Of a stretch of DNA of 64,000 nucleotides, positions 40,619 to 58,269 are shown in pieces. This DNA is from Promethearchaeota archaeon (GTDB taxonomy: Archaea; Asgardarchaeota; Lokiarchaeia; Sigyniarchaeales; SOKP01), in assembly GCA_008080735.1 (NCBI GenBank), contig SHMW01000004.1, forward strand, positions 1 through 64,000. The letters are read 5' to 3'. The notes below the pieces were generated by a model that was given only the letters and a program-made list of their open reading frames with translations, made no database searches and was not told the origin of the DNA. The position numbers and the translations under genes are program-made. Positions within the stretch are counted from its first letter, which is position 1, and every line of letters begins with the position of its first letter.

Positions 40619-42133
40619 TTATGGTAGAGCTAATCTACCTGGATGCATTATCATATTAGGATCAACAAGCTTTTTGAAAGCCCTCAAATATTTCCAGTAC
40701 ATTGCTGCATCATAGTACGCTTGAATATGGATATATGGATCTGGTCTGTAATTTAACCAGCCTTGCTTTAATCCGTATTCTGTGGTTTCTCTGTTCAGAT
40801 CTTGGACTTTTTCGAACTCCTTCGGGTCTGTGCTGTCGAAACAGATGATTGGCATACAAATCGCTTGGCGACATCGCTCGATAGACGCAATCCACATTTC
40901 CAGGTGCATCTTGAGGTAAGATGCGATAACTGGTGGAAAGTCGTATTTCTCCATCGCGGCATTATACATCTCGGCGAAGTGAGCACATTCATTCCATGGT
41001 GTGTACCACGTAATAAATAGGAAGCCCGCTTCCCAGAAGCTATACGGAATCGCTATTTTATTCGGTTTCTTCATTCTGCTCTCGATCTGCTTCGGATGTA
41101 ATTCCCACGGTCGCATCGCATCACCGTCTTTCGCTCGATTGGCAGCATAATCCTTACAATGGTTATTAATAGTATCAACAACATGCTCTAACTCTTTCTC
41201 TGATTGTGCCCAGCATTCCCAGTTCATCCACCACTCCGGAATACCAATCTTCTCAAAGAAAGCATATTCGTGAGGAATCTTATCTTTCGGCCATCGAGTC
41301 ATGACTAAGGGATAATTTCCCCCTTGTACCATAACGGTATTGTGAGCAACGCCAAATTCTTTCATACCTAATTCGAGCGTGACATCCTGCATATCATATG
41401 GGTTTGACATACCCCATGCGACCACAGTTTTTGCGTCTGGATGAGGATAAATCTTGACAGCAGCTTTCGTGACAACTCCTAATGCTCCTTGGGAGCCCAT
41501 CAAAAAGGACCACATGTCAGGCCCCAAACCATATTTATAGAACGGTTTTGCGCCTGGAAGAGCCCAAGAGCCAGTTTTTACGACATCACCATTTGGGAAC
41601 ACAATCTCGGCGCACATGAAATTGTCGCCTTGAGGTCCGACCGATGATGTATATAAGGAAAACCCTCTGTCAATCGCATCGCCCATAACGGTCGCCGCGG
41701 GAGGAGCTCCATCCGCGATTGGAGGTGCCCAATCAGGGTGGTTCTTATGCATATATGCCCAGAGCTGCCCGTTCGTGACGCCTGGTTCAATGATCGCATA
41801 ACGATTATCTTCATCGATTTCCAGAATTCTGTCCATCCGTCCTAAATCGAGCATAACGCCCGCTGGTTTAATAGTCGGGCATGCAAACCCTCCGGAGAGT
41901 CCCGCTGAAATGGGAGAGACGGCGATCTTCTCATCAGAACAGTATAAGAGAATCTTTCTGATTTCTTCGACGTATTTGGGTCGCAGTACGACATCAGGAA
42001 TCTGACTTTCCAAGCCCATGACGGATTTTGCGAGGTAGGACGCGGTGATGGCTTCATCCATCGTGGCGTATTCCTTCCCGACGATACCCTCGAAGGCTTG
42101 GAGGTCTTTTTCGGTTGGTGCTTTATAACTCAT
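40619..42133 (-). CDS. FAD-binding oxidoreductase (GlcD/VAO family); candidate in-frame 30-nt intron at 40898-40927
   Basis: PDVVLRP, LDLGRMDRILEID, IEPGV, GSQGALGVVTK, KKLVDPNMIMHPG. Confidence 0.9.
   Translation of the reverse strand: MSYKAPTEKDLQAFEGIVGKEYATMDEAITASYLAKSVMGLESQIPDVVLRPKYVEEIRKILLYCSDEKIAVSPISAGLSGGFACPTIKPAGVMLDLGRMDRILEIDEDNRYAIIEPGVTNGQLWAYMHKNHPDWAPPIADGAPPAATVMGDAIDRGFSLYTSSVGPQGDNFMCAEIVFPNGDVVKTGSWALPGAKPFYKYGLGPDMWSFLMGSQGALGVVTKAAVKIYPHPDAKTVVAWGMSNPYDMQDVTLELGMKEFGVAHNTVMVQGGNYPLVMTRWPKDKIPHEYAFFEKIGIPEWWMNWECWAQSEKELEHVVDTINNHCKDYAANRAKDGDAMRPWELHPKQIESRMKKPNKIAIPYSFWEAGFLFITWYTPWNECAHFAEMYNAAMEKYDFPPVIASYLKMHLEMWIASIERCRQAICMPIICFDSTDPKEFEKVQDLNRETTEYGLKQGWLNYRPDPYIHIQAYYDAAMYWKYLRAFKKLVDPNMIMHPGRLALP
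40898..40927 (-). other. Candidate BHL-type mRNA intron (30 nt, in frame)
   Basis: ATCGCATCTTACCTCAAGATGCACCTGGAA; central helix CCAG/CTGG; cut sites TT|A and AA|A; 7-bp stem with ACCTC loop. Confidence 0.6.
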
Positions 42134-42366
42134 ATTATTCAGCTTTTTCTTTTTTTTATATAGTTAATTTTATAAACTATTAATGTTGTTTTTGAAAATT
42201 AATCGTCCTAATTAAAAATTTCTTATATGTTTTGCATAAAAAGAGTAATGGTTTCTTATAATTTCAATGATGAAGTTTTAAAAGGCGATCATTTGATTTG
42301 CTTATAAAAACTCGGAAAGGTATTTTTGAAGTTTAATACCTTTTTATGAAATTCTTTCCTAATTTC

Positions 42367-42648
42367 TCAGAAGAAAATAGATATGTGTTTATCTTTATTG
42401 ATTAAGTCCTTTTCAACAGTCATTTCTAGGGGTTCTTGATCTCTTCTTAAGGAAATATAATGTGTTTGGGCATCGACAATCTCGAGTTCCTTTCCCTCAA
42501 ATAACTGGACTAATTCCTCTAATTTATCTGCGTAAGTATCCAATTCTTTAGCTCAACCGAACAACGCGAGTTTAGCATTATCATCCGTATAACGGAGATG
42601 ATTCGCTAAATGATCACCTTGTTTCAGATGTAAAGATAAAGTATATTT
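42367..42648 (-). pseudogene. Start-less paralog of 43477-43797 with an internal TGA
   Basis: KYTLSLHLKQGDHLANHL..KLALFG*AKEL aligns by eye with EYSLFVHWKQGEHLAYYL..KKAILDWDNN; TGA 42553-42555 sits at the Trp position. Confidence 0.7.
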
Positions 42649-43128
42649 TTATTCAACAAATAAATCCTCTCTCTCATCCTTATCCAAGTAATTTTGTAAT
42701 TGTAAATGGATTAAGGCAGATGTTTTATCATAATCCTGTTCCTTAACAATTTTTCTGATTCTTTCGACTAAAAAAGGTTCGGTATATGCTCCAAATTTCC
42801 CTCTCATCATTAAACCAAACTCAGAGTCTATTATTGCATTTCTTTTACCTTTGTTCATTTTTGATAATTCGTTTATGAGGAATTTAATCATACTATATTT
42901 TTTAATAAGTGAAATCGAATCCTGTGTATCTAGGAAATCAATGAAAGAGATAGAATGTAAATCGAAAATAGTATCTAAATCTCTGTTTACAATTGCTAAT
43001 CCCAATCTTCTTAAATATTCAGACGATAATGACTCTCCAATACATCCAACAAACTCCGACTCCCAAAAACCATCTATAGGATCGTTATTTAGTGCTAAAA
43101 TGATATCAAAGAGTTTTCTATTAATCAT
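42649..43128 (-). CDS. Hypothetical protein
   Basis: 159-aa ATG ORF whose start overlaps the stop of the upstream frame (ATGATTAA). Confidence 0.6.
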   Translation of the reverse strand: MINRKLFDIILALNNDPIDGFWESEFVGCIGESLSSEYLRRLGLAIVNRDLDTIFDLHSISFIDFLDTQDSISLIKKYSMIKFLINELSKMNKGKRNAIIDSEFGLMMRGKFGAYTEPFLVERIRKIVKEQDYDKTSALIHLQLQNYLDKDEREDLFVE

Positions 43129-43471
43129 CTTGAAAATATCTTTTCATTTTTCGTTCACCTAAATTTCTAATTATAGTTTCAAGAAGAATTTTATATTCAA
43201 AAGAATACCAGGAATGTAATTTATTTTCAAATTTATCTAAAAAGTTTTCTCTTAAATCATTAGTTTCAAAAATAGTCTCGATTGTGAGAATTAATATTTC
43301 ATTTTTAAGAGACTTATCCCTAATCTTATATCTACGAGAATATCCTTCTTTGTATTCTTCAAACGGTCATAGAGTTTCCCTAATCTCAAATAAAAAATCT
43401 ATTAATTCATCATTTTTTTCAATAGAATCCAATCTTTCTTGTAAAGCCTTTATACACAATTTAAAATTCAT
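43121..43471 (-). pseudogene. Hypothetical ORF (117 codons) with one internal TGA
   Basis: MNFKLCIKAL..RETL*PFEEYKEGYSRRY..YFQDD*; TGA at 43367-43369; abuts both neighbours. Confidence 0.6.
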
Positions 43472-43476
43472 TCATT

Positions 43477-43797
43477 TCAATCCTTTTCATACTTTTTGAT
43501 GACTAAATTTTGTTTAGCGGCATCTTCTAAGGCTTTTTCATCCCCCGCTAGTATTATGGAATGATCACTGCATAGGGATATTTTTAAGTTCTTATCCTTG
43601 AATAGTCCTAACAATTTTCTGATTTTATTTGCGCTTTTTCGGAAATTATTGTCCCAATCTAGTATTGCCTTTTTGGTATCATAATCGCGTTTTTCTAAAT
43701 AGTAGGCTAGGTGCTCTCCTTGTTTCCAGTGAACAAATAATGAATATTCTTCATTTTTGGAAGTTTCTTTGTTTTCCATATTTATCTTTTTTGACAT
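43477..43797 (-). CDS. Hypothetical protein (intact paralog of 42367-42648)
   Basis: 106-aa ATG ORF; the local paralog supports coding status. Confidence 0.7.
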   Translation of the reverse strand: MSKKINMENKETSKNEEYSLFVHWKQGEHLAYYLEKRDYDTKKAILDWDNNFRKSANKIRKLLGLFKDKNLKISLCSDHSIILAGDEKALEDAAKQNLVIKKYEKD

Positions 43798-43892
43798 TTA
43801 TTGAATTTTGTGTTATTAAATAATAAATTAACCCTAAATATTTGTTCCATTATTTAGAACCTTCATGATTATGTGAGAACCCTTTAAAAAAA

Positions 43893-44864
43893 TTATGTCT
43901 CGTTATTGTCAAAATAATCGGTAATTTTTCTCTGAGTGAATAAGAATATGATTTCATTTTTAATATCACTTATCCTTCCGGTAATTGTCTCCGTATTCCT
44001 TAGAATAATTCTAAAATGATTTATTCCTAATTTTCTTATAATTTCTGGAATTTCAATCTTTTCATGAATTTCTTCAGCTAAAAAGTGCAGGAACATTCGA
44101 ACTTTCGATCTTAGTGCTTCTTTTTCTTGTCTCCCAATATTAATTTCTCTACAATTATGTCTTAAAATATAATTAATAAATTCCATAACTCTAAAGTCTG
44201 TATCTTTTTCTTTTATCTTCCTTGAAATTATGAACTGTAAAAAGGAGTTAGTCAAAATAATGCCCGCATTTCTCTCAATATTTATTTTCCCATCCTTAGT
44301 TCCTGAAATGTCTAATATATCATCTAAAAGAAACGGAATGTAAACTTTTTCCCAAATATCATTCTGATTTGATATTTCCATCAAATTGTTTATATATTTA
44401 TGGTTTAAGGTTCCCTCTTTTACATTTAGCTCAAAAAACTTTTTGTTTTTTAAATCTATACAATATACATTTACTGGTTTTAAAATTGGAACAGTATCTA
44501 TTATTTTTAAAATAATATCTTCAGGTGAGTTATAAAATACATAATCTATGAAGACTTCTGCTTTAGAATTTACTGGAATTAGAGTGCTATCAAAATTCTT
44601 TACTTGAATTTGCAAATAGTTCTTATATTGAGGTTTTATGCTATTATTTATATCATTTTTTGAAAAAATGGTTCTTTTTTTAAATTCAAAAATTAAATAG
44701 AAATTAATCCCTTCGAGTTCATAATAACCTATAAAATCAGGTTTTACAGTACTTTCGTTACTTAATTCAATATCTAATTCAAAAACGCCCTTGATTAACC
44801 CTCCTACGGATTTCATCGCCGCTATAAGGAAATTGATGACTTTAGTTTGGTCCGACAATCTCAT
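43893..44864 (-). CDS. Hypothetical protein with a possible PD-(D/E)xK nuclease motif
   Basis: VKPDFIGY..LIFEFKKR; very AT-rich. Confidence 0.55.
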   Translation of the reverse strand: MRLSDQTKVINFLIAAMKSVGGLIKGVFELDIELSNESTVKPDFIGYYELEGINFYLIFEFKKRTIFSKNDINNSIKPQYKNYLQIQVKNFDSTLIPVNSKAEVFIDYVFYNSPEDIILKIIDTVPILKPVNVYCIDLKNKKFFELNVKEGTLNHKYINNLMEISNQNDIWEKVYIPFLLDDILDISGTKDGKINIERNAGIILTNSFLQFIISRKIKEKDTDFRVMEFINYILRHNCREINIGRQEKEALRSKVRMFLHFLAEEIHEKIEIPEIIRKLGINHFRIILRNTETITGRISDIKNEIIFLFTQRKITDYFDNNET

Positions 44865-44865
44865 A

Positions 44866-45942
44866 TTAATTCGCTAGGTTAATGTTTTCATTATCAACTT
44901 CTAATTCAATATTCGGGTCTAGGTGTGTTTGGAGATTAGAAAATAAACGCAATATGATGTTTCCACATGAATCACTATTTAAATTGATAAAAAGTTTATC
45001 CATGAAAATTTGTAATGTGAATCTTCCACCTGTATGTTCATCGATACAATTATATAATATAAAATCTTTCTCCCGAACTTGCTCAAAAATGATAATCTTA
45101 AATATTTTACGATTTTTCATTAATATCTTATAAATTTTTTGGGGATCTATTGCTGTCTTCAGTTGAATCCTATATAATTGACCTTTTAATTCACGCCAAT
45201 CCGTACGATAATTTTCTATTAATTCGATCTTTGAGTTATAATCATCTCTTATTAGTTCAATAAAGTCTAGATGTTTGTGAAAATCATATCCCTTATTGAT
45301 CGTGAACCTTCCATTTCTATAAAAATCTTCTTTTATAATTATTTCTTTATCGATATCTTCAAAAACGTAATTTAATGAATTAAAATTTATGGGTAAATTG
45401 ATATTGTCTATGAAATATTGCATACTATTAGCTTGCTTTGGCCATAACCTCATTGTGTAATTCAAAAGCTTTTCTTTTATGGGATCTCCCTCATCAAAGA
45501 AAAGTTGTTTAAATTTTATACTTACCCCCATTGAATCAGAACTATATATTTTCCAATATTTTGTAAGCATCTGATTTGTTAAATATATTCTATCTTGAAG
45601 ATAACTATTCCAAAATAAATCTTCAATTTTTGATTTTATTATTTTTTGAGATTCGATATTATGTAAAATCCAAAATCTATGGTTTGTAGTATCAGCATAT
45701 ATAAAATAATCTTCATTATTTGGTGATTTTATTAACACATTGAAAAAGTTTTCCTCTTTGGAAGGAATAATTGTAATCTTATCATACCTATTTCCAAATT
45801 CCTCAATAGAATCAAAATTCGACTCAATAATATTTCCTTTAATTTGATTTTGAATTCGTTCTTCATCTGAATATTCATTTTTTAGCACAGATTCAAAATA
45901 TTGGTACCAATCCGATTTGTATTCAAAAATCTTATCCATCAT
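44866..45942 (-). CDS. Hypothetical protein
   Basis: 358-aa ORF, 1 nt from the next gene; very AT-rich. Confidence 0.7.
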   Translation of the reverse strand: MMDKIFEYKSDWYQYFESVLKNEYSDEERIQNQIKGNIIESNFDSIEEFGNRYDKITIIPSKEENFFNVLIKSPNNEDYFIYADTTNHRFWILHNIESQKIIKSKIEDLFWNSYLQDRIYLTNQMLTKYWKIYSSDSMGVSIKFKQLFFDEGDPIKEKLLNYTMRLWPKQANSMQYFIDNINLPINFNSLNYVFEDIDKEIIIKEDFYRNGRFTINKGYDFHKHLDFIELIRDDYNSKIELIENYRTDWRELKGQLYRIQLKTAIDPQKIYKILMKNRKIFKIIIFEQVREKDFILYNCIDEHTGGRFTLQIFMDKLFINLNSDSCGNIILRLFSNLQTHLDPNIELEVDNENINLAN

Positions 45943-46099
45943 AAATTTTAAATTTTGTTATTTTTGATCATTTAAAAGGATCTTTTCTATTTAGATATTG
46001 AGGGTGTAATAAGATATGAATTTATTATTAGAAAAGAAGATTTTTATTATAAATATATATGAAAATTCAGAGGTATGTATAGTTATTTTTTAATTTTTC

Positions 46100-46324
46100 C
46101 CAAGGAAAACGAATTTTTCCTCCGCATCGATTAATTCATGTTCCATTCTTCCTTAGTGAAACTGGGCTGTTGCATTTTTCGCGCTCAACCTATTCCATCA
46201 TCTTGTACAAGGAAACGCCCGGCATGGTAGCTGCTTCAGCCAAGCTCACAAGACCTTTCTGATATAACATAACCGCTTCATTCATTTTACATTCTGAAAT
46301 TTGTTTAAGCAAGAATTTACGCAT
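46100..46324 (-). pseudogene. UPF0175-family (putative antitoxin) pseudogene
   Basis: MRKFLLKQ..EAVMLYQKGLVSLAEAATMPGVSLYKMME*VEREK, then an apparent frameshift; 3' end approximate. Confidence 0.6.
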
Positions 46325-46447
46325 CTCTTTTATTTTTTATTCCTAATCTAAATTATACAATTTTTAAAACACAAAATCCAATTTATCTCTACGTATTAAC
46401 ATAATGTAATATTTTGTCTAATCTCTTGAAATAAAAAATCGGATAAA

Positions 46448-46630
46448 TTAAAGTATTTGACGTTTCATCAGATAATAGAGTAAGAAGTTAAGAATTCCCC
46501 CAATAATCCCCGCATAAAAGCCCGTATCGAACCACCAATCGGTAGCATCAATTCCAATTTTTCTCATATTTTCGAATATAATCGTCGAAATATATTGATA
46601 ATTATGAAATCTCAGCAAAAAATACCCCAT
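46448..46630 (-). CDS. Small membrane peptide or gene fragment
   Basis: 60-aa ATG ORF with one hydrophobic helix. Confidence 0.4.
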   Translation of the reverse strand: MGYFLLRFHNYQYISTIIFENMRKIGIDATDWWFDTGFYAGIIGGILNFLLYYLMKRQIL

Positions 46631-46709
46631 ATTCTTTTATTATCACTATCTTTATATAGGTTTGAGAGTTTTATCATAATAAGACGTTCCACGCTAGGGG
46701 TTGGATTGT

Positions 46710-48440
46710 ATGGTATTTCGGGAAAAACAATATGAAATGATTTTATCGCAGATCATCGATAAGTTCTCCAAAATTAATGGAGAAGCGGAAGAGAGACCTG
46801 AGAACAAAAAAATTTCCAAGAAATTAAACGAATTAAAACTGATTTTAAAATCCCTAAGAAATAATCCCGGGAAAAATCCATTAGAGGTAATTCAAACCAT
46901 TAAAAATAGAATAAACAACGACTCAATAATTCCACAATTATCCGGAAACGACTATTTTCAGTGGATCATAAATAATATGGATGATATCGTCTCAATTTTT
47001 GACAGTAATTTAAATTTAGAATTTATAAATAATGCTCAAGAGCGCTATTCTGGATTTACTAAAGAAGAAATTGTTGGAAAAAACACTGCTAGATATATTC
47101 ATCCCGATGACCAATTTAAAGTGCTTTCCGTGCTCAAAAATTCGTATAAGAAGGGTTATGGAGAAGCGGAATATCGTATGAGAACTAAGGAGGGGAAATA
47201 TGTGTGGTTACACGGTAAGGGACATTTGGTTAAAAAAGGTGGAAAAACCAAAATAATCATCATAGGAAGAGACATCACGCAGAGAAAGAAGTTGGAAAAC
47301 CAGTTAACGCATTGGAATAAGAAACTTGAAGAAAGGGTCGAAAGACGCACGAGGAGACTGAAAGAATCGCAAGAAAAATACAAGATCCTCACTGAAAACG
47401 TAAGTGATTTGATTATGAGTATTGATTCAAATCTTAATATAGACTACTTCAACCATCAAATTCATAAAGAAATATTAGGATATAAAGAAGACGAGTTAAT
47501 GAATGAACCAGTATCCAATATTCTACATCCAGAAGAATATCAAAAAGCTTTAGATACAGTTAAACAAACTTTTGAAAATGGTAGTGGTAAACTCGAATTT
47601 CGAGTCAAGCATAAGAATGGCAACTTTTTGTGGTTTGAGTCAAAAGCAAGGAGATATACTAATGAGGAGGGGGAGAGAAAAGTTATAGTCATATCTCGAG
47701 ATATAACCAAAAGAAGAGAGTTTGAGCACCAATTAAAAGAACTGAATAAACTGAAGTCAGATCTCCTCAGACGGGCTTCTCATGAATTAAAAACCCCTTT
47801 AGTCGCAATCAAAGGATATACGAATTTCCTATTGGAAAATTATAGCCAGTTTACGCATGATGATATAATTGATGTCTTGACTCAAATTCGCTCTGGTGCA
47901 GAGAGATTACAAGATCTCATCAATGAGATTTTAAAAGCATCTAAACTTGAATTAAAGGCAGATTCATTCCACCCAGAATATGAGGACCTTACATTTTTGA
48001 TACAGTTTGTTATTGATGAATTACAAGGATATATCCGCACTCGTCAGCATCAATTAGAGGTTAATCTTCACGAGGATTTAAGAGTAAAATGTGAAAAAGA
48101 AAAGATCTATGAGGTTTTTACAAATCTCTTATCAAATGCGATAAAATATACCCCGAAAAGGGGAAAAATCACGGTCAAATCACAAAAACTTGAAGATAAA
48201 ATTATTATAAGTGTCAAGGATACGGGTATTGGATTTACTCAAAACGAAAAGAAGCAAATATTTAAGAAATTTGGTAAGATTGAAAGATATGGGAATGGTT
48301 ATGATATAGAAATTGATGGTCATGGATTAGGCTTATATAATTCTAAGAAATTAATTGAATTACATGGCGGAGAATTATGGATGAAATCTCCTGGTAGAAA
48401 TAGAGGATCAACATTCTACTTTTCTCTACCGAGGAGCTGA
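46710..48440 (+). CDS. PAS-PAS sensor histidine kinase
   Basis: Two PAS domains (IHPDD, LHPEE); ASHELKTPL; NLLSNAIKYT; DTGIG; GHGLGL; GSTFYFSLP. Confidence 0.95.
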   Translation: MVFREKQYEMILSQIIDKFSKINGEAEERPENKKISKKLNELKLILKSLRNNPGKNPLEVIQTIKNRINNDSIIPQLSGNDYFQWIINNMDDIVSIFDSNLNLEFINNAQERYSGFTKEEIVGKNTARYIHPDDQFKVLSVLKNSYKKGYGEAEYRMRTKEGKYVWLHGKGHLVKKGGKTKIIIIGRDITQRKKLENQLTHWNKKLEERVERRTRRLKESQEKYKILTENVSDLIMSIDSNLNIDYFNHQIHKEILGYKEDELMNEPVSNILHPEEYQKALDTVKQTFENGSGKLEFRVKHKNGNFLWFESKARRYTNEEGERKVIVISRDITKRREFEHQLKELNKLKSDLLRRASHELKTPLVAIKGYTNFLLENYSQFTHDDIIDVLTQIRSGAERLQDLINEILKASKLELKADSFHPEYEDLTFLIQFVIDELQGYIRTRQHQLEVNLHEDLRVKCEKEKIYEVFTNLLSNAIKYTPKRGKITVKSQKLEDKIIISVKDTGIGFTQNEKKQIFKKFGKIERYGNGYDIEIDGHGLGLYNSKKLIELHGGELWMKSPGRNRGSTFYFSLPRS

Positions 48441-48557
48441 AATCTGTTTAATTTCAATTTTTTCTGTTTTCAGCCTTTTATAATATTCAATTTAGGTTTA
48501 TATATTTTCATTCCTTACCTAAAAAGGTGAAAATACTAAATTTTTCCTAAGAAGAAA

Positions 48558-50180
48558 ATGACCAAATCACAGTTTGATTGTATAATTATTGGGGGTGGTG
48601 CCACCGGAGCTGGTATAGCAAGGGATCTTAGCTTGAGAGGATTGAAAGTGTGTTTAGTGGAGAAGAAAGATCTAAGTGAAGGTACCACTGGTCGTTGTCA
48701 TGCGATGCTTCATTCTGGTGGGAGATATGTGTATAAGGATAAGGTTGCTGCCACCGAATGTGCCGAAGAAAGTGAAATTCTATTGAAAATTGCGCCCCAT
48801 ATCACTGAATTATGCGGAGGATATTTTGTTGCGGTAGATGACGAAGATGTAGAATATGGGAATATCTTTCGAGAAAGTTGTAAAAAGGCAAAGGTTTGGT
48901 GCGAGGAAATGTCTCCCCAAGAGTTTTTACAAGAGGAGCCGAAATGTAATGAAAATATAAAACGAGTATTTAAAGTTAAAGATGGATATATAGACCCATT
49001 CTTACTTACAATTTATAATGCCTATGACGCTAAACTTAACGGCGCGGAAATCCGTACATATTCAAAGGCAACTGACTTAATTTTCGAAAATGACAGAATA
49101 ATTGGAATAAAGGTTTTGGATAAGCTTCATAATACAACTTACGAACTTTATGGAAAAATCACGATTAATGCGACTGGGCCTTGGGCAGCATATTTAGAAA
49201 AAGACTTACAATTGGAAAAGAATTTAGAAATCGCGCCCACGATGGGCACTCTTTTAGTAATTAAGAATCGATTAGTTTCACACCTTATTAATCGTCTGCG
49301 AGAACCAGGCGACGGAGATATAATAGTTCCGAGTCATCAGTCCGTTATTTTAGGTACCACATCTAAACTTGTAGCTTTAGAAGAATTAGACAACTTACTC
49401 CCCGATAAAGAAGAGATAAAATATCTTTTGAATCTTGGAGAGTATTTAATCCCCTCTATTAAAGATCATCGAATAATTCGCTTCTATTCTGGTGCGCGAC
49501 CTCTCATAGCAAGCGGTGGTCCATTGCGAGAGGCTTCAAGAAAATTTGACATTATTGATTATAGCGATGAAGGATATGAAGGGTTGCTAACGATTTTTGG
49601 CGGAAAATTGACAACATATCGTCTCATGGCAGAAAAAACAGCTGATCTCATCTGCGAAAAACTCAATTATGAAGCGGAGTGTCAAACGGCTCAGAAACCA
49701 TTACCAGGAGGAGAGCAAAAGATAACTCAAAAAGTCTTCGAAAAGGAACTTAAAGTAGATGAGAAAACCGCATTTGATATGCAATATAAATGGGGTACAT
49801 ACTACAGCGATATTCTTTCTTTGTGTGAAACTTGTATGGATTCTTATACATCTCTTAATAAACCAAGAACCATCTGTGAATGTGAAAACGTGACAGAACC
49901 GGAGCTATCGTGGACAAATAAGAATTTAATGGTAAAAGTTATGGATGATTATCGTAGAAGAACTCGACAAGGAATGGGGCCTTGTCAAGGTCAATTTTGT
50001 TATTATAAATTGGCAAACTTGGAAGCAAAATGGACCGAAAAAAGTCACTCTCAAATCATGGAAGAATTAAAGACCGCACTCCAGAAAAGATGGAAAATAG
50101 AACCTTCCGCAAATGAATACCAACTTAGACAGATTAAACTAGCGAAATACGTGTATCTCTTAGGAGGGAATTTAAAATGA
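48558..50180 (+). CDS. glpA: Anaerobic glycerol-3-phosphate dehydrogenase subunit A
   Basis: IIGGGATGAGIARD, GTTGRCHAMLHSGGRY, GGKLTTYRLMAE, CECENV..RRRTRQGMGPCQGQFC. Confidence 0.92.
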   Translation: MTKSQFDCIIIGGGATGAGIARDLSLRGLKVCLVEKKDLSEGTTGRCHAMLHSGGRYVYKDKVAATECAEESEILLKIAPHITELCGGYFVAVDDEDVEYGNIFRESCKKAKVWCEEMSPQEFLQEEPKCNENIKRVFKVKDGYIDPFLLTIYNAYDAKLNGAEIRTYSKATDLIFENDRIIGIKVLDKLHNTTYELYGKITINATGPWAAYLEKDLQLEKNLEIAPTMGTLLVIKNRLVSHLINRLREPGDGDIIVPSHQSVILGTTSKLVALEELDNLLPDKEEIKYLLNLGEYLIPSIKDHRIIRFYSGARPLIASGGPLREASRKFDIIDYSDEGYEGLLTIFGGKLTTYRLMAEKTADLICEKLNYEAECQTAQKPLPGGEQKITQKVFEKELKVDEKTAFDMQYKWGTYYSDILSLCETCMDSYTSLNKPRTICECENVTEPELSWTNKNLMVKVMDDYRRRTRQGMGPCQGQFCYYKLANLEAKWTEKSHSQIMEELKTALQKRWKIEPSANEYQLRQIKLAKYVYLLGGNLK

Positions 50181-51481
50181 ATAATGATGAAAACAGAAAG
50201 ATATTGGATGTATGTATTGTTGGAGATGGCTTTGCCGGACTCAATTGCGCCCGCCTATTAGCCAAAAAGAGTATAAAGTGTGAAATTTTTTCAAAAGGCT
50301 ATGGGGCTTCACAATTATGGGTTGGAACCTTCGATTTCTTAAATTATGAAGGAGGATCTCTTCAAAATGCTTATAGTAGATTTATTAATGATTTTCCTGA
50401 CCACCCTTATAAGTATTTATCTTATGATGAGGTAAAACAATCATTTAATGAATTTTTTCAAGAATTTCCGGGATTCAACTATTTTCTCGAGCATGACAAT
50501 TTTGTAAATAAACAGGTACTTACTCTAATTGGTAATTTAAAACCATGTATAGGAATATGGCATTCGATTTTCAATGAGTTTGATGAGTTATCTCCAGACA
50601 CTACAATTCTTTTAATAGATTTTCACGAGTTTAATAATAGTGCAATGTACTTGGTTAAAAAAGGATTGGAAAGTAAATATGAATCCATTTTTAGCATCGT
50701 CAAACTATCTTTCACGGAAGTATTGACATGTTGGGGAATTGGCAAAGATGATAAAGAGTTAGACAACTTAAGCGATTTTAGGATTGGGAATTTTTTTGAT
50801 TCTAATTATGAAAATCTTCGTCCTTTTTGTGAGTATCTTCAAGACCAAGTGAAAAAATCTTATCCTGACTTAGAACAAGGAAGGGTCAAATATATCCTAT
50901 TTCCTCCTATTCTTGGAATTGATAAAAACTCTCAGATCATAAAATCATTAGGGAAGCTTCTTGGGATTCCATGTCGAGAAGTCGTGGCATTTTCTCCATC
51001 TTTAATGTCTAAAAGGCTGATGAAAATATTTGATTCCAAAATAGATTCATATTCCATTACCCGTAATAAAAGATTGGAGCTAGTAGATTTAAAAATAGCA
51101 AAAAATGAGGGAAAAAGAGTGTGGCAGCTCATTTTTAAAAACTCTAAAGGTGATGAGAAGATAATTTTCTCAAACTATGTTATATTTGCAATAGGATCTG
51201 TTTTTAAGACGGGATTGTTTGAATCTAAGCATAATCTTGAGCTAAAGTTGAAAAATTTAGATATTCAAATTCCTAATAACTTTTCTTCGAATTTCGAGAT
51301 TCAATTCTCGAATGGAACAACAGAATCAGGACTTTTTGCTTGCGGTGCTGCTTCCTATGTATTGTGTGAGAATTTGGACGATGATCTTGAAATTAAATAC
51401 GGAGCGGGCTTGGGTCTCGCAATTTCTACTTCATTTAGAATTTCCAATTATATAAGCGATAAAGTACAAAAAGAATTTTAA
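50177..51481 (+). CDS. glpB: Divergent GlpB-like flavoprotein subunit
   Basis: ATGA overlap with glpA; IVGDGFAG, PDHPY, FPPILG, GAGLGLAISTS. Confidence 0.7.
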   Translation: MNNDENRKILDVCIVGDGFAGLNCARLLAKKSIKCEIFSKGYGASQLWVGTFDFLNYEGGSLQNAYSRFINDFPDHPYKYLSYDEVKQSFNEFFQEFPGFNYFLEHDNFVNKQVLTLIGNLKPCIGIWHSIFNEFDELSPDTTILLIDFHEFNNSAMYLVKKGLESKYESIFSIVKLSFTEVLTCWGIGKDDKELDNLSDFRIGNFFDSNYENLRPFCEYLQDQVKKSYPDLEQGRVKYILFPPILGIDKNSQIIKSLGKLLGIPCREVVAFSPSLMSKRLMKIFDSKIDSYSITRNKRLELVDLKIAKNEGKRVWQLIFKNSKGDEKIIFSNYVIFAIGSVFKTGLFESKHNLELKLKNLDIQIPNNFSSNFEIQFSNGTTESGLFACGAASYVLCENLDDDLEIKYGAGLGLAISTSFRISNYISDKVQKEF

Positions 51482-51497
51482 AACGTATCTTTTTATC

Positions 51498-52298
51498 CTA
51501 TTTTACAATCCTTCTTTTGATCGCTATCTTATGCCCGATGTATGCTCCTCCAAGAGATGCGATGATAATAAAAGGCAAAAATGCTAAAATGATATAGATA
51601 AGCACCGGTTGCACAGACAAAAAGTACGTTATTATAATTATTATAAAATATATCAAGGCATTTATAAAGGATACTTTAAGATTCAGCGATAACAATCCTG
51701 AAATAAAATTTGCTATACCAAATACGATCACCAACTCCGCAAAAGAAAATAGGACTATCTGTGGTATCAAACGTGTTAAAATCTGCTCTATTGTAAAGAA
51801 GTTTGGATTTGGTGATAAAACTAAGTACTCTGTAGCAAAAATATTTAAAAGTGTAAACAAGATTGATAGTGGAGTTAATATAATCCAAGTCAATGCAAAG
51901 CGCACGGGAAGTGAATACGTGGTATAACGCTTCAGATTGGTTTGCAGTATCTCCTCGATATTACTCCTGTCTATCACTTCTAATTCATAATCAGGTGAAA
52001 ACTCATCAATAAAATCTTGTAATAAATCTTTTAAAAAGTTGCTAACCAATTCATTATTATCTTTTGAACTCACAATTGCCGCTCCGAAAATTTTTTCCTC
52101 TGGTTTTGGCTCGAGAATTAATTTATTATCCTCTCCAAGATCGACGAATTTAACCACGCTTTCAAGCGCTTCTCTGCTAAAATTCGCAACAGAGGCAAAA
52201 AAACCTATTAAAATATTATCATCATATGGTTGGTCCATAAAATTCTTCGAATATAAGAGAATGCCATTTCTTTTGAGTATATATACACTTTTTATCAT
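51498..52298 (-). CDS. Longin-like domain fused to about four C-terminal TM helices
   Basis: MIKSVYILKRNGILLYSKNF..ILIGFFASVANFSRE..FLKDLLQDFIDEF, then hydrophobic helices. Confidence 0.65.
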   Translation of the reverse strand: MIKSVYILKRNGILLYSKNFMDQPYDDNILIGFFASVANFSREALESVVKFVDLGEDNKLILEPKPEEKIFGAAIVSSKDNNELVSNFLKDLLQDFIDEFSPDYELEVIDRSNIEEILQTNLKRYTTYSLPVRFALTWIILTPLSILFTLLNIFATEYLVLSPNPNFFTIEQILTRLIPQIVLFSFAELVIVFGIANFISGLLSLNLKVSFINALIYFIIIIITYFLSVQPVLIYIILAFLPFIIIASLGGAYIGHKIAIKRRIVK

Positions 52299-52331
52299 TT
52301 TAATCCTCTTGAATATTTTTTAATGTTATTT

Positions 52332-54047
52332 TTAATATGTTAATTCTAAAAATTGAGCGACTTCTGTCAAGGATGCTCTATAACGTTTAAAACTATAAAG
52401 ATCTGGTCCAAATATATGGATTAATTTTTTTATTATCTCATTAGGCGCTTCTTTAGGAAATAGTTTGTATTTTTCGTATTTTCTTTCTTCAATTACTATT
52501 GCTGATTTCAGCTCAAATAATTTGTTAATTGCTTCAGTATTTGGATAATTCAGTTCCACGGTAATCAATTCCCCAGATTGAGGTATTTTTTCTATGAGTT
52601 CTTCTTTGGTTCCACATTCTAAACCTTTTTCTGTAATAGTTAGTACCTTATCACAATCAGAAATAATGGTTTCTGGACCGTGAACTATTAATGCTACATG
52701 AAACTCTCTTTTTACATCTTCTAAATATTTCTTAAATTTCTCGTATTGGAGCCGATTTAAAATACCCTTTGGAAGTGAGAACATAATGATATCAGGAGAT
52801 TGTATAAGAGCCCGAGCAATACAAAATAGAAAATAATCTAACGCTTTTAAATCAGATACTGTATTTTTTCTTTTATTATACACTCCCGTAATTTGAAGTG
52901 CCCTCTTCCTAAGTTGTCGTCTTTCGCGATAATCCTGTAGAAATGATACGCTTTTCCAAAAAGGTCCTTTCGTCATCCATTCATCAAACAGAGTTGTAAG
53001 CTCAGACTCTCGTAAAATATTCATAAATTCTTCTTTGCTCCGTTGTCCCTTTATCTTTGTTTCCACATTATATTTAATCGCCTTTTTCAGCTTCATGCCC
53101 GCCATTTTAGAATCAATTGCTTCAGGAACAATGAATATCTTTTCTAAATCCTCTTCAGTGGTTAACTGAATAAATTTACCGAATATTTTTATAGTACCCG
53201 AAAACTGATGGCTTTTTCCTGCGATCGTAGAAAAAAATCTCATTATATTAATCTGTTCTCTACTTGATTCTGAGGAACCTTCATATAAAATTCCTAATGA
53301 TTGTCCTCTCGTAAGCCTAAAACTTATATCTTCCAATTCATCGCTGATTGAGACATCTTCTAATAAAAGATGTTGATAATTTTTGTAAAAATTCCGAATC
53401 TCTAAAATAGATAGAATAATATCTATTAATTCCTCAATTAAATCGATAATATGAGGTGGATTTAACTCATCCCAATTTCTAATAATATCTAATTGGGAAA
53501 ACTCTTCTAGTTTTATTATTCGGGACAGAAAACGTGAGAAATTTATATTTGGTTGAAGCGGGTAATTTTCAAAATTGATATCCAATTGTACATAAAACCC
53601 TGGAAAATAAATTCTTACTCTTCGATGATAAGGTATCTGGTCGAGTTGATAATTCTCAAAATTATCATTGAGAAGTTCTAATTCTCTATCTACTTCTTTT
53701 AAATGGTGTTGAAATTCCCTCTCGATTAATTTATCAATTCTCTGAATGATTTTTCTTGGACTTATTAAACCATCCTCGTCAAAATCCGGTTCGACCAAGA
53801 TTTCATTAAAATCTACTGTCGTTTCTATTGGGGTATTGATTTTTAATAGTGGAACACCTTTTTCTAATACATCCGTGTTAGTAAAGAATAAAACCTCGAT
53901 AAAACTTTTTTTATATTCTAAATCTAAAACGGTCGCTAATCCAAAGGTCCCTTGCCGAAAGATTAACCAATATTTTTCTGAAAACCGAATTGCATCAGTT
54001 ATTTTTTTTCTGAGAATTTCTAATTCTTCTTTCCTTGTTCTACTCAA
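52332..54047 (-). CDS. UEV/RWD-like domain(s) fused to a degenerate ABC ATPase domain
   Basis: LDINFENYPLQPNINF..NWDELNPPHIIDLIEEL; ABC-like ISFRLTRGQSLGIL and IARALIQSPDIIMFSLP without Walker A lysine or Walker B DE; likely TTG start 54047 overlaps the upstream stop. Confidence 0.65.
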   Translation of the reverse strand: MSRTRKEELEILRKKITDAIRFSEKYWLIFRQGTFGLATVLDLEYKKSFIEVLFFTNTDVLEKGVPLLKINTPIETTVDFNEILVEPDFDEDGLISPRKIIQRIDKLIEREFQHHLKEVDRELELLNDNFENYQLDQIPYHRRVRIYFPGFYVQLDINFENYPLQPNINFSRFLSRIIKLEEFSQLDIIRNWDELNPPHIIDLIEELIDIILSILEIRNFYKNYQHLLLEDVSISDELEDISFRLTRGQSLGILYEGSSESSREQINIMRFFSTIAGKSHQFSGTIKIFGKFIQLTTEEDLEKIFIVPEAIDSKMAGMKLKKAIKYNVETKIKGQRSKEEFMNILRESELTTLFDEWMTKGPFWKSVSFLQDYRERRQLRKRALQITGVYNKRKNTVSDLKALDYFLFCIARALIQSPDIIMFSLPKGILNRLQYEKFKKYLEDVKREFHVALIVHGPETIISDCDKVLTITEKGLECGTKEELIEKIPQSGELITVELNYPNTEAINKLFELKSAIVIEERKYEKYKLFPKEAPNEIIKKLIHIFGPDLYSFKRYRASLTEVAQFLELTY

Positions 54048-57000
54048 TTTCTGGCACCTCCATTGCTCTAAATCTAAAGTATTGTTCCATAACACTGTCC
54101 GATTGCTTTAATCCAAGTATACTGTTTTCTCCAAACGTTTTTTCTAGCTCCTCGCGAACTTCATTCAAATTAAGGTTCGTGAGCAATGCAAAATCCGTCC
54201 CTACCTTATTTTCCAATGCCTTGTCTATTCCTTCAATTTTCTCTAATCTCTCAACAGCATCTTCTTGAATATCGTAGAAGAAAAGCTCAATAGTTCTCCC
54301 ATCACCGGGTAATTGAGACAATAGTTGTCTAGGCGTGCCAAAATCGATCATACCCCTTCCTCTTCCAAATACAACTACTTTATTACAGAATCGTGATTCT
54401 TCAGGATAATGACTGATTACTATTAAGGTGGTATTATATTTCTCATTAATTTGAGTAAGTGCGAGCCATAAATTCTCACGCACAACTGGGTCTAAGCCCG
54501 AAGTAGGCTCGTCCAGTATGCAAAAGATTGGATTATGAATCAGACCCATAGCAATACTCACCCGACGCTTCTGCCCACCCGATAGATTTTTTACAAGCTC
54601 ATTCATCTTATCTTCAATTTCGAGACTTCGAAGAAGTCGTTTGGACTTGCTTACTATTTCTTTTTCGGTTAGACCATATTGCTTTCCAAAATAGATAAGG
54701 TTTTGCAGAGTAGTAAAATCAGTATAGATCTTGCCTAAATCTTGAGGAACATAACCATAAATAGGTCTAATTTTCCGTTTATTTTTTTTTACATCCATTC
54801 CATAAATTTCACATATTCCCGTATATTTGCGCATTCCTAATAAAGCTTTTACGAAGGTGGACTTACCCGCTCCACTTTCTCCTAAAACGCCCAATATCTC
54901 ACCGTGTTCTAATTCAAGCGAAACACCATCCACAATTAGTTTCTTTCCGATATAAATATCTAAATTTTCACAATAAACCGCTGAAAAACGTTTAAGATAA
55001 TTTATATTTAAATCTCCTTCTAGTCCGATCATTGACTTTAAAATTTTCATCACGCGTTCATTAAGATAAGACAATATACTGATGACGATGAAAGCTACTA
55101 TGAGCAGTGCTTCTGATATCATTAACCATATTAATAAATTACTCCACGGCAATGGATCAAATGCCTGGTCATATCGAATTTCATCTATGATCACTAAACC
55201 ATATGGCGTGTTTCTTAAATCGCCCCCAAATGATGGAATATCGCCAACCCCTCCCGTATTTAGACTAATGCATCGTCTATACCATTCGGTAAGAGTTTTG
55301 ATATCTTCGGGTTGTGAACGATATCGATATAAAGCAATCGAACCTAAATAGGTAGATATGAATGAGGAGGGTAATTCAGTTAATTGGGAAAGAAACGGGA
55401 TAATATTAAAGCTCCCCTCCTCTTTTTGGGCGCCTTTTAAAAATTCTATTGCAGCAATTTTAGAAAGAGGTTCTAAATTCAATATTTTATGAATTTCCAA
55501 TCCATAATATGTAGAGATTACATCCGAATGAAATCCGTGAATAATGGAAAATCCTCCATCGGGATTCTGTCCAGAAGAGATCCAGTGAGTAAGAGTATTT
55601 TGATCTATTAGATTAAGAGCATTTAGATCATTCAAACTTTTAATTGCCCAATAGGTACTTTCTGTGGTGGAAATATTCGTGTCAATCAGATCTTTAAGAA
55701 GTAACTCATAAGCAGGTCCGAAATATGATAAAAGTAACTCAAAATCCTCCCCAAGTTTGAATCCTCCATCCGGATTCTGTAAATTAGCTAAATAATTGAC
55801 TGTTGCGGTCACATTTGGGAGATTTTGAAGCGTATACGGTTTAAATAACTGGTATAGAAATACAGCGCAGTAAGTGGAAAATATTGATGAATTAGCTAAA
55901 GGTTGGGAGCCGAATCCCCCATCCTCGGGATTATAACACGAATTTACAAAATTTATTATGCTATTTATATCTATGTATGTTATATATTTTTCTGAATTCC
56001 AATTATAAAGAGCCAAAACGCCGAGATAATTGATTTGAAGATTCGTCTCACCGATGAGACCATTGAAGGCTTGATATTCATACAACCAATTATAATAGTT
56101 TATTTTAAAAGAATCATCAATTACTAAACTACCATTTTTTTCTAATAAAAAGATTGAATTCATTCCACCCCATCCCGATGTGAAATCGGAAACGTTTATC
56201 GCCCAATGAGGACCAAATCCGCCGTCCAAATTAGTACAATTTGTTACAAATTCTTTAGTTTGTGTTTGATTAATAAAAAAACTATTATTAAAATGATAAA
56301 TATTCCATAATGAATAATAAGTTGCCGATATGTCTGAAATCGCGGCTTGAGTAGATGATCTGAACCCCCCATCCAATGGATTATACAATAGATTATAATA
56401 TCCGAAAATTGCTAATTCTTCTGAAGAATTATATGTATACCCCATTTCTAAATACGCTCGAACGCCATAATATGTGGTTTCAGCGGTCACTGTCGTATAG
56501 GAACGATTAGAATACCTATAACTCCCAGAAAATCCTATTGAGTAGTTCCCTAACAATTTAATATAAGCGGTAATAGACGCATTATTCGTTTCGAGAATAG
56601 AGTTAGCGTTGAGTCTTTTTACGAGCTTAATTGCATAGTATGTAGAGATGATATCTGCCTCGGGGACTTCCTCATTATATTTAAATCCCATCCCCCCTTC
56701 ATCTAATGAATTATTGATGTAATCGATTGTCCGATTTATTCTATCTTGATGCTCGGGTGCATCTAAATAACTCCCGTTGAGCAAATCGATCGTTTCAATA
56801 ACCTTATATGTAGAATACATATCGCCAAGACCTCCTATATCAGAATAAGACCCATCGGGATTTTGTTTTTCAAATAAATAATCTAAGAAAAATTCCCGCT
56901 TACTCTCGCTTAGGTTGGGATTATTCACAGGATGGACAAAATGAGATGTGTTAAATAATGGACTGGAAAAATTAATGGAATCGATAGCTCGATAATTCGA

Positions 57001-57207
57001 ATCTATTGTTGGTTCTACGAACAAGTTGTCGGGATTTTGATGAGTGCCAGAAAAATACGCCATATTGTTTTTATAGCTTTTCACTTGAGCTTCACTAAAA
57101 TATTCAATAAACGGAATATTGATTAATCCTAATACAATTAATTCTCCGATGAACAACCCGATAATCAATAATAAATACTTGATTCGGCGTTTTTTCTTTC
57201 TGTCTAT
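54040..57207 (-). CDS. Signal anchor + prenyltransferase/squalene-oxidase repeat domain + TM + intact ABC ATPase
   Basis: Repeats QNPDGSY, NPLDGGF, NLDGGFG, NPEDGGFG, QNPDGGF x2; GESGAGKST, LSGGQ, LDEPTSGLD, ISH; start either TTG 57168 or ATA 57207. Confidence 0.85.
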   Translation of the reverse strand: MDRKKKRRIKYLLLIIGLFIGELIVLGLINIPFIEYFSEAQVKSYKNNMAYFSGTHQNPDNLFVEPTIDSNYRAIDSINFSSPLFNTSHFVHPVNNPNLSESKREFFLDYLFEKQNPDGSYSDIGGLGDMYSTYKVIETIDLLNGSYLDAPEHQDRINRTIDYINNSLDEGGMGFKYNEEVPEADIISTYYAIKLVKRLNANSILETNNASITAYIKLLGNYSIGFSGSYRYSNRSYTTVTAETTYYGVRAYLEMGYTYNSSEELAIFGYYNLLYNPLDGGFRSSTQAAISDISATYYSLWNIYHFNNSFFINQTQTKEFVTNCTNLDGGFGPHWAINVSDFTSGWGGMNSIFLLEKNGSLVIDDSFKINYYNWLYEYQAFNGLIGETNLQINYLGVLALYNWNSEKYITYIDINSIINFVNSCYNPEDGGFGSQPLANSSIFSTYCAVFLYQLFKPYTLQNLPNVTATVNYLANLQNPDGGFKLGEDFELLLSYFGPAYELLLKDLIDTNISTTESTYWAIKSLNDLNALNLIDQNTLTHWISSGQNPDGGFSIIHGFHSDVISTYYGLEIHKILNLEPLSKIAAIEFLKGAQKEEGSFNIIPFLSQLTELPSSFISTYLGSIALYRYRSQPEDIKTLTEWYRRCISLNTGGVGDIPSFGGDLRNTPYGLVIIDEIRYDQAFDPLPWSNLLIWLMISEALLIVAFIVISILSYLNERVMKILKSMIGLEGDLNINYLKRFSAVYCENLDIYIGKKLIVDGVSLELEHGEILGVLGESGAGKSTFVKALLGMRKYTGICEIYGMDVKKNKRKIRPIYGYVPQDLGKIYTDFTTLQNLIYFGKQYGLTEKEIVSKSKRLLRSLEIEDKMNELVKNLSGGQKRRVSIAMGLIHNPIFCILDEPTSGLDPVVRENLWLALTQINEKYNTTLIVISHYPEESRFCNKVVVFGRGRGMIDFGTPRQLLSQLPGDGRTIELFFYDIQEDAVERLEKIEGIDKALENKVGTDFALLTNLNLNEVREELEKTFGENSILGLKQSDSVMEQYFRFRAMEVPEIE

Positions 57208-57238
57208 TATTATTCACCTGGTTTATGTATTGCTTTTT

Positions 57239-58269
57239 CTACTTTTCTAATAATTCTAATCTATCTTTCTCTTCCTCTCTTTTGATTCGTAATTGGAAAT
57301 AACGTCTAAAATTTGCAACATCTCTGCTCATTGCCATTATCTTGACTTCTCTTTCCAGTAAATAGTCGATAAGAGGGAGTAAATTTTCCTCGAAATCTTC
57401 TAAAAATACCTCGACTACATCATTACCTACTCGAGATACTTCTTCACAATGCTCAAAATCCGCTATTATATCAATGATCTCTCCTGTGAGGTTTTCAATC
57501 GATAATCTCGCTAGTAATCCATTGCTTGGTAGAGAGGAAATTAAATTATGGGGGGTATCGAAATCAAGTAATTTTCCTTTCCTTAAGATTGCGGTCTTAT
57601 CACAGACAAGTGCCGCCTCTAAATCATGTGTGATGATAAACATTGTAGTCCCTAGTTTTCGGTTTAATTTCTTAAGATAATTAAGGATATCATAACGCTT
57701 ATTGGCGTCTACACCTTTTATCCAAATTAATTGAGATAATTAATTTGTGTGGTAGGTTCATCTAAAAATAAGACGCCTGGATTATGAATAAGCCCTATAG
57801 CCATTGAGACTCTCTTTTTTTCTCCTCCACTAAGACTTTTTAGTGGGTTTTTCCATGTATCTTCGGGAATATCAAGTATAGAAAATAACTCTCTAGCACG
57901 TTTTCTTGCGTCCTTTTTTGTCATCCCGTAATTTGATCCGAATATTTCTACATTAACTAGCGGGGAAAGTTCATAATAGAGATTTAGTAATTCTAACTGT
58001 GGAACATAACCAATATTACTTAATATCTCAGAGTGATTTCTTTTCTTAGCAGGATTCAGACCAGTGACCATTATATCACCTGACCAATTGTTTTTCTTGA
58101 TTTGACAAGTTAGAACTCTAATTATAGTTGTCTTTCCAGCTCCAGATATTCCAAATAATCCAATTAATTCCTTTTTTTTAACATTGAAAGATACATTATG
58201 AATAATTTGAGAATCACCAAAAAACACATTAAGATTCTCAACATCAACAGATACTTGATTTAAAATCAA
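57239..58269 (-). CDS. ABC ATP-binding protein interrupted by a 32-nt candidate intron; join(57749..58269, 57239..57716), 332 aa if spliced
   Basis: GISGAGKTT, LSGGE, LFLDEPTT in the 5' part; GVDANKRYDILNYLKKLNRKLGTTMFIITHDLE resumes in another frame 32 nt later. Confidence 0.85.
57717..57748 (-). other. Candidate BHB-type mRNA intron (32 nt)
   Basis: ACAAATTAATTATCTCAATTAATTTGGATAAA; 10-bp perfect stem with ATCTC loop; bulges AC|A and AA|A flank TACC/GATA; removal restores frame and D-loop. Confidence 0.8.

Follow-up and report, generated by a model that had tools for sequence, protein, structure and literature searches.

The closest described relative of the system treated here is the bulge-helix-bulge (BHB) intron in the cbf5 pre-mRNA of Desulfurococcales and Sulfolobales (Watanabe 2002; Yokobori 2009, PMC2738675). 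A second archaeal mRNA, HVO_1309 of Haloferax volcanii, has such an intron in its 5' untranslated region (UTR; PMC7714728), and the same paper states that cbf5 is the only other archaeal mRNA example. Across the searchable papers, which set our literature scope for archaeal mRNA introns, cbf5 is the only case of a protein-coding BHB intron in archaea, with this one 5' UTR intron beside it. Here we describe two inserts of 30 and 32 nucleotides (nt) in a 64,000-nt stretch of DNA (the window) from a Promethearchaeota metagenome-assembled genome (MAG; GenBank assembly GCA_008080735.1, contig SHMW01000004.1, positions 1 to 64,000), one in the gene of a FAD-linked oxidase and one in that of an ABC-transporter ATPase. 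From comparison with related genomes, we consider it likely that both are BHB mini-introns of the kind that this lineage carries in its tRNA genes, placed inside protein-coding genes and spliced by EndA and RtcB.

As with cbf5, the hosts are protein genes, and a short BHB intron that is gained and lost among relatives would be removed by the tRNA splicing endonuclease and a ligase. The cbf5 intron is confined to one gene in Thermoproteota (Crenarchaeota), whereas at least nine unrelated genes carry inserts in a single Promethearchaeota genome; unlike cbf5, these inserts share a uniform 29-37-nt hairpin build with the tRNA introns of their host, and their turnover between congeners is rapid. 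Experiments have demonstrated that cbf5 is spliced, whereas here we infer it. We rejected membership of the cbf5 intron family, the hosts being an ABC ATPase and a FAD oxidase in a Promethearchaeota MAG; by analogy, the window inserts would work like the cbf5 intron without belonging to its family. The HVO_1309 intron likewise makes an mRNA, outside tRNA and rRNA, a substrate of the archaeal splicing endonuclease, and differs in being a single case in an untranslated leader rather than in coding sequence. In eukaryotes, the IRE1 pathway cuts mRNA at stem-loops independently of the spliceosome and joins the ends with a tRNA ligase, and removal of its short intron shifts the reading frame. Its endonuclease is IRE1 rather than EndA/TSEN, and it is stress-regulated as opposed to constitutively removing many introns. 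IRE1/RtcB splicing of the HAC1 and XBP1 mRNAs is mentioned in PMC8718801. Nearest in lineage are the noncanonical tRNA introns of Asgard archaea, described from tRNA genes only (PMC11291895; bioRxiv 10.64898/2026.10.13.758758), which have been gained repeatedly and presumably depend on the same enzyme. In the genome containing the window (G000), tRNA introns share an architecture of ~30 nt, a 9-bp hairpin, an AUCUC-type pentaloop, four-base exon pairing and AA^A at the junction (a caret marks junctions throughout); the inserts described here differ in having mRNA hosts, where removal must restore the reading frame.

The G000 MAG has ~34% G+C (about 66% A+T) and 17% C, is 93% complete and has a contamination estimate of 7%; one short contig, C140, is very high in G+C relative to the rest of the genome and is probably a contaminant. 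Logan contigs from two marine-sediment metagenome DNA runs of one study match both inserts with zero differences. The assembly is unlikely to come from one of these runs, whose contigs were assembled independently from a second sample. A search of sequencing runs for the stretch returned these two DNA runs and no RNA run. Because the Logan contigs agree without differences, both inserts are real DNA and not assembly artefacts. All window coordinates for the inserts and their host genes refer to the minus strand:

40619 to 42133, minus strand: FAD-linked oxidase gene, host of candidate mini-intron A (PF01565 FAD_binding_4, E = 1e-20)
40898 to 40927, minus strand: candidate mini-intron A, 30 nt, in frame and without a stop, encoding IASYLKMHLE if retained
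57239 to 57716, minus strand: ABC ATPase exon 2, whose reading frame is restored once the insert is removed
57717 to 57748, minus strand: candidate mini-intron B, 32 nt, in the ABC-transporter ATPase gene, causing a frameshift and an in-frame TAA
57749 to 58269, minus strand: ABC ATPase exon 1 (PF00005 ABC_tran, E = 5e-25), with an excess of substitutions at third codon positions

An earlier note on this DNA had placed the 30- and 32-nt inserts ~17 kb apart in two unrelated genes, and its coordinates and sequences hold. The shared ends that it reported (a starting A, and AA before an exonic A) and the A(T/C)CTC pentaloops closed by U-A agree letter for letter. It had also claimed that the 3' end of each insert is complementary to the upstream exon, which we find at 3/4 positions in the ABC insert (UACC/GAUA) and at 4/4 in the oxidase insert (CCAG/CUGG).

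Insert B splits the LDEPTT^GVDANKR motif of the ABC_tran ATPase. The gene reads …LFLDEPTT up to the insert, where the Pfam match also stops, and the frame picks up at GVDANKRYD… 32 nt later; in silico excision yields LDEPTT-GVDANKR, matching the intron-less orthologues, and the spliced peptide across the junction is predicted to be LDEPTTGVDANK. In an alignment of orthologue DNA, the insert occupies the identical site in G000, in G006 of the same genus (an identical insert), in G008 (33 nt) and in G019 (31 nt). The aligned site is empty (…ACNAC^NGGNGT…) in G020, G003, G002 and the congener G005, and at least five more genomes are empty as judged by length. Both exons carry a coding signature: differences at codon positions 1/2/3 number 6/0/16 (G000 versus G006) and 46/21/89 (G000 versus G008) in exon 1, and 23/8/70 and 44/22/82 for the same pairs in exon 2, with the same third-position excess in pairs of insert-free genomes. 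Because exon 2 keeps the excess seen in insert-free pairs, it appears to be translated in a frame that only removal of the insert provides, and this downstream exon is, by its pattern of substitution, under purifying selection.

In the reaction that we propose, two stretches of four bases, each placed 3-6 nt upstream of a junction, would pair in the pre-mRNA: the exon stretch before the 5' junction and the intron stretch before the 3' junction (exon -6 to -3 with intron -6 to -3). They would form a 4-bp central helix, H. Two 3-nt bulges on opposite strands, made of positions -2, -1 and +1 of each junction, would border this helix; the intron hairpin h', which begins at +2, would lie on one side of it, and a short exon-exon helix, h, would close the motif on the other. 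EndA would cleave each bulge 3' of its second base, and RtcB would ligate the exons, restoring the frame …LDEPTT^GVDANKR… in the ABC ATPase and dropping ten codons that are missing from orthologues of the oxidase. Intron-less orthologues place the insert boundaries exactly at the predicted cut sites, and removal at these sites restores the frame or the orthologous length. For insert B, the paired elements are:

57723 to 57747, minus strand: inner hairpin h' of intron B by folding, a perfect 10-bp stem (57747-57738/57732-57723) with loop AUCUC (57737-57733)
57751 to 57754, minus strand: exon half UACC of the 4-bp central helix H, pairing with intron GAUA (57719-57722)

Insert B fits the motif without slack (h = ACC/GGU, 3 bp; bulges AC^A and AA^A; h' of 10 bp). 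Its central helix, with three of four pairs in G000, is complete in G008 (UACC/GGUA) and in G019 (AACU/AGUU). Over the three distinct versions of the insert, 96% of cells are paired, against 21-48% when partners are slid, and five pairs, including two of the exon-intron helix, have changed on both sides, a number reached by 2/500 shuffles. Within the inner hairpin, 96.6% of helix cells are paired and three pairs have changed on both sides.

For insert A, the corresponding elements are:

40906 to 40924, minus strand: inner hairpin of intron A by folding, a 7-bp stem (GCAUCUU/AAGAUGC) with loop ACCUC
40930 to 40933, minus strand: exon half CCAG of the central helix H, pairing with intron CUGG (40900-40903), 4/4 Watson-Crick

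The open reading frame (ORF) of the oxidase, 40619-42133, is continuous and encodes 504 aa, or 494 aa once the insert is taken out. Orthologues occur in 37/41 genomes searched, G000 included. Only G000 and G003 have insert A, the 10 other aligned orthologues being contiguous across a gap of exactly 30 columns, and no others among the orthologues in 71 Promethearchaeota MAGs have an insert at this site. The best BHB register has H = 4, with bulges UU^A and AA^A, a 2x2 internal loop (UC/AC) separating the hairpin from the bulges, and an outer helix h of CA/UG (2 bp), a relaxed form; relaxed BHB motifs without one flanking helix are known substrates of (alpha-beta)2 and epsilon2 enzymes (PMC5829648). 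The spliced peptide is predicted to be FPPVMWIASIER, and the retained version reads FPPVIASYLK…. The copies in G000 and G003, near-identical and the only two known, differ by two substitutions, and an A-U pair that became G.U in G003 still pairs. Elsewhere in the same gene, inserts of 29-34 nt stand at eight different sites across the 71 MAGs. One site is common to six genomes, which carry a 31-32-nt insert near the 5' end, and the G003 gene has two inserts. The orthologue loci with inserts at the seven further sites are:

L172 (G003, WJIS01000054.1)
L188
L195
L222
L224
L229-L234
L241
L247

These other sites bear on an alternative that we regard as unlikely, in which only frame-breaking inserts are spliced and the oxidase insert (40898-40927) is mostly retained, or is partly spliced to give two isoforms. 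The oxidase family has frame-breaking inserts of 29, 31, 32 and 34 nt at other sites, and insert A itself is exactly 30 nt where all other orthologues are contiguous. It introduces neither a stop nor a frameshift, as retention would have it; yet it bears the full family signature (A start, AA before an exonic A, ACCUC, 30 nt) together with a perfect 4-bp central helix. Retention would also accord with an h' set behind a 2x2 internal loop, with an outer helix of 2 bp and with the existence of only two known copies, too alike at two substitutions to display covariation.

The host has the enzymes that splicing of these inserts would require. Two matches to PF01974 (EndA; contigs C72 and C37) and two to PF01139 (RtcB; C10 and C1) lie above the curated cut-offs, and two EndA paralogues are consistent with the broad-specificity (alpha-beta)2 type. 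ARAGORN, which handles single introns only, called 26 tRNAs in G000, 16/26 of them with introns. Three introns in tRNA T-loops resemble the mRNA inserts:

G000:C69:7208, plus strand: tRNA T-loop intron, 30 nt, 9-bp stem, loop AUCUC, H of GUUC/GAAC, bulge AA^A
G000:C7:74663, minus strand: tRNA T-loop intron
G000:C41:30324, plus strand: tRNA T-loop intron

They are 28-30 nt long, lie inside GGTTCGA^…^ATCC and have the hairpin, pentaloop and AA^A of the mRNA inserts; of all hairpins in the genome whose loops are AUCUC-like, the one at C69:7208 makes the best BHB. Because hairpin, pentaloop, central helix and AA^A all agree, the mRNA inserts are built like the tRNA introns of the same cell.

Further inserts came from a reciprocal tblastn census in which 2.57 Mb (69%) of G005 was compared with G000. 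At least nine inserts in G000 were verified. Those private to G000 or to G005, and others checked in sequence in G000, are:

ABC ATPase (mini-intron B): private to G000
FAD oxidase (mini-intron A): private to G000
G000:C43:27376: private to G000, 30 nt, acetyl-CoA-synthetase-like gene
G000:C1:13385: private to G000, 30 nt, with TAA, Rab-like GTPase
G000:C123 ~296-324 (locus L251), plus strand: private to G000, 29 nt, frameshifting, in the aIF2-gamma P-loop GHVDHG^KT
G005:C5 ~511985-511954: private to G005, 32 nt, loop AUCUC
G005:C10:447293: private to G005, 30 nt
G005:C12:325025: private to G005, 30 nt
G005:C10 ~139540-139517: private to G005, 31 nt
AMP phosphorylase, DKHST^GGVPGNK: checked in G000; G005 has an insert at the same site with a different yet complementary stem
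G000:C11:35446: checked in G000
RNase HII, GIDEAG^R^GPVLGP: checked in G000
G000:C30: checked in G000, 37 nt, acyl-CoA-ligase-like gene

Inserts occupy catalytic motifs of genes that are otherwise intact. Of the nine that are present in G000 or in its congener G005 but not in both, eight by hand tally begin with A, eight end in AA, eight precede an A and seven have a 5-nt loop, with lengths of 29-32 nt. The family turns over quickly, though the inserts in AMP phosphorylase and at the aIF2-gamma site are older.

Two of these genes extend the covariation seen in insert B. The acetyl-CoA-synthetase insert divides the Pfam AMP-binding profile, with positions 7-208 on one side and 223-372 on the other, and over four versions its intron is 91.7% paired, with five double changes (0/500 shuffles). 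The aIF2-gamma intron is likewise 91.7% paired with five double changes (0/500 shuffles), and a synonymous change of an exon His codon, CAU to CAC, is matched by an intron change from A to G. This site is occupied in G000, G017, G020, G008, G015 and G009 (at least five genera) and empty in at least 12 other relatives, and the gene that carries the insert is the only eIF2_C match in the 93%-complete G000.

Other scans of the genome returned few cases of this kind. A paralogue-based scan of G000 for split genes recovered only the ABC and acetyl-CoA-synthetase cases and otherwise mostly single in-frame stops or frameshifts. A fused-peptide scan against G005 was swamped, under loose filters, by junctions between adjacent genes with a ribosome-binding site and ATG; under strict filters, it retained just two inserts that G005 lacks, those of the ABC and acetyl-CoA-synthetase genes. 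An insert in DnaG, looked for by the motif GAIFGQ, was not found. A further candidate, at G000:C18:6924 (minus strand), is 30 nt long, with a 9-bp stem, a 4/4 central helix and AA^A as its bulge; taking it out would connect ORFs of 101 and 194 codons.

Several points weigh against the reading that both window inserts are spliced mini-introns. Cleavage and ligation in the cell, and their efficiency, are deduced from genome sequences, and the EndA subunit type is assigned from copy number only. The central helix of the G000 ABC intron contains a C.A mismatch, and the oxidase intron combines a relaxed h', behind its 2x2 internal loop, with an outer helix of just 2 bp. Being in frame and stop-free, the oxidase insert could persist unspliced as a tolerated 10-residue insertion, and because it is tolerable in this way it is the weaker case of the two. 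Genome-wide, BHB descriptors are not enriched relative to controls in which the frame or the register was shifted or complements were swapped. Of 552,041 matches in a loose BHB scan, 3,728 restored an ORF in the true frame versus 3,645-3,790 in shifted frames; compact hairpins numbered 89 versus 93-101 in controls; a grid of bulge sizes around all hairpins had no surplus at the (3,3) register; and a refined family descriptor scored 2 versus 0, 6 versus 5 and 8 versus 6 against its complement-swapped twin. Because an AT-rich genome yields many chance BHB-like hairpins, motif search alone cannot find or count introns, and because chance hairpins are this abundant, only comparison with relatives finds true cases.

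Enrichment over controls was one of the checks that the earlier note had put forward, and there the descriptor counts stayed flat. The comparative checks turned out in its favor: further examples exist (at least nine in G000, four private to G005 and eight oxidase sites in 71 MAGs), related genomes reveal precise, polymorphic insertions, and EndA and RtcB are present as two paralogues and two genes. The mRNA mini-intron family that it proposed now has comparative support from BHB geometry, covariation, purifying selection, EndA/RtcB, tRNA introns and further inserts. The abundance it had extrapolated, from two per 64 kb to ~130, gives way to an estimate of about ten or a few more per genome.

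The loop that it had taken for a shared mark fared in a more divided way. The bare motif TTAYCTCAA occurs 4 times in the window versus 3.15 expected, a chance level. Among hairpins with Watson-Crick stems and 5-nt loops, ATCTC occurs 13 times versus 4.4 expected, a surplus that is suggestive, most of these hairpins being without BHB context. ATCTC-type loops are found in independent inserts, namely the G005 insert on C5, the G017 copy of the acetyl-CoA-synthetase insert and the tRNA T-loop intron at G000:C69:7208, AUCUC or ACCUC is present in five inserts that are independent of one another, and by hand tally most family pentaloops have C as their last base, in a genome of 17% C. The loops of orthologous copies drift (ATTTA, TAAAC, ATCAC, TCTTT), and it is puzzling that loops are more alike across loci than stems are. 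The AYCUC loop thus looks like a real recurrent tendency and not a conserved signature; either common descent or functional constraint may be its cause.

Precise insertion, BHB geometry, covariation, selection on both exons, the presence of the enzymes and membership of the tRNA-intron family are established. The inserts have the bulges and helix, flanking helices, cut positions and host enzymes of archaeal BHB introns, and covariation is found in the ABC, acetyl-CoA-synthetase and aIF2-gamma introns. These properties bear on a second alternative, in which the inserts are palindromic DNA insertion elements or their footprints that are not removed from RNA, the ABC gene being a pseudogene or encoding two polypeptides and the oxidase gaining 10 residues. 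Hairpin palindromes of uniform size, patchy among close relatives, are what mobile DNA would leave, the oxidase insert is in frame and stop-free, and the descriptor searches lack enrichment; nonetheless, we find this account improbable. ABC exon 2 retains its third-position excess in insert-bearing lineages, the exon-intron helix covaries where a DNA element has no reason to keep pairing, an insert breaks the only detected aIF2-gamma gene in six genomes, and inserts lie within catalytic motifs of genes that are intact apart from them. Nor do the window inserts have terminal inverted repeats plus a target-site duplication. A miniature inverted-repeat transposable element (MITE)-like element was rejected as a candidate, the palindrome being internal (1 nt from the 5' end and 6 nt from the 3' end) and neither window insert having a flanking direct repeat.

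That the ribosome skips the inserts by translational bypassing or programmed frameshifting, with no splicing, is scarcely credible: the stable hairpin and the stop codon soon after the ABC 5' junction give the insert a superficial resemblance to the coding gap of phage T4 gene 60, but matching take-off and landing codons are missing (take-off ACA/ACC, with no match at the 32-nt 3' end), conservation is of BHB features, namely 3-nt bulges, a helix of 4 bp between exon and intron, and covariation, in a build shared by tRNA genes, which are not translated, and each of the many unrelated genes with 29-37-nt inserts would require bypass signals of its own. Splicing of BHB mini-introns accounts for these features, and on sequence grounds the cells very probably splice many mRNAs.

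The comparisons also turned up several loci of other kinds. In a multi-copy family (G000:C13:35643, C87:5332, C42:15365 and C49:19240), every copy is interrupted at an identical position by one in-frame stop, with ORFs of ~124-183 aa followed by ORFs of ~413-462 aa and paralogues that align straight across the stop; readthrough, Sec or Pyl recoding, or a mobile element could underlie it. At G000:C42:6470 and C13:49147, ~1040-aa ORFs are followed by an overlapping ~160-aa ORF in another frame, both matching the same paralogue, and in the window a 1042-aa ORF (54040-57168) overlaps a 587-aa ORF (52332-54095) within 52332-57168 on the minus strand; such pairs may reflect a programmed frameshift or a family of fused and split forms. 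A conserved frame at G000:C6:82161-82167 (minus strand) has 14 extra bases relative to G005 and two in-frame stops further on, and looks like an antisense or noncoding conserved region rather than a gene. The segment G005:C12:296966-297348 holds ~354 extra bases within the orthologue of a G000 ORF of >850 aa (o6985); its size is well beyond that of the mini-introns, and an intein, a larger intron and an insertion are all conceivable. At G000:C43:16844-16865 (minus strand), a -1 frameshift relative to the G005 homologue (~42% identity), also flagged by the paralogue scan, has no BHB.

More tentatively, the ~30-nt hairpin introns may form one actively spreading family that colonizes tRNA and protein genes of Lokiarchaeia-type Asgard archaea. 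New copies would reach BHB-capable sites, for example by a reversed EndA/RtcB reaction followed by reverse transcription and recombination, and the A-pyrimidine-pyrimidine-U-C pentaloop, like the A…AA^A ends, would have a function, as a mark of either the element or a factor binding to it. If this were true, spliceosome-free mRNA splicing would be obligatory for core genes such as aIF2-gamma in relatives of eukaryotes.

Gene callers split or truncate genes of this kind, so that 'split' and 'pseudogene' calls in Asgard MAGs need re-reading. For the question of how introns arrive, named by a recent tRNA-intron census as the open problem, the inserts provide a natural system in which coding frames give exact intron boundaries. 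One Asgard genome would need its tRNA-splicing machinery for at least nine genes, including its only detected aIF2-gamma, and in the archaea nearest to eukaryotes, gene expression would routinely include splicing of mRNA by endonuclease and ligase.

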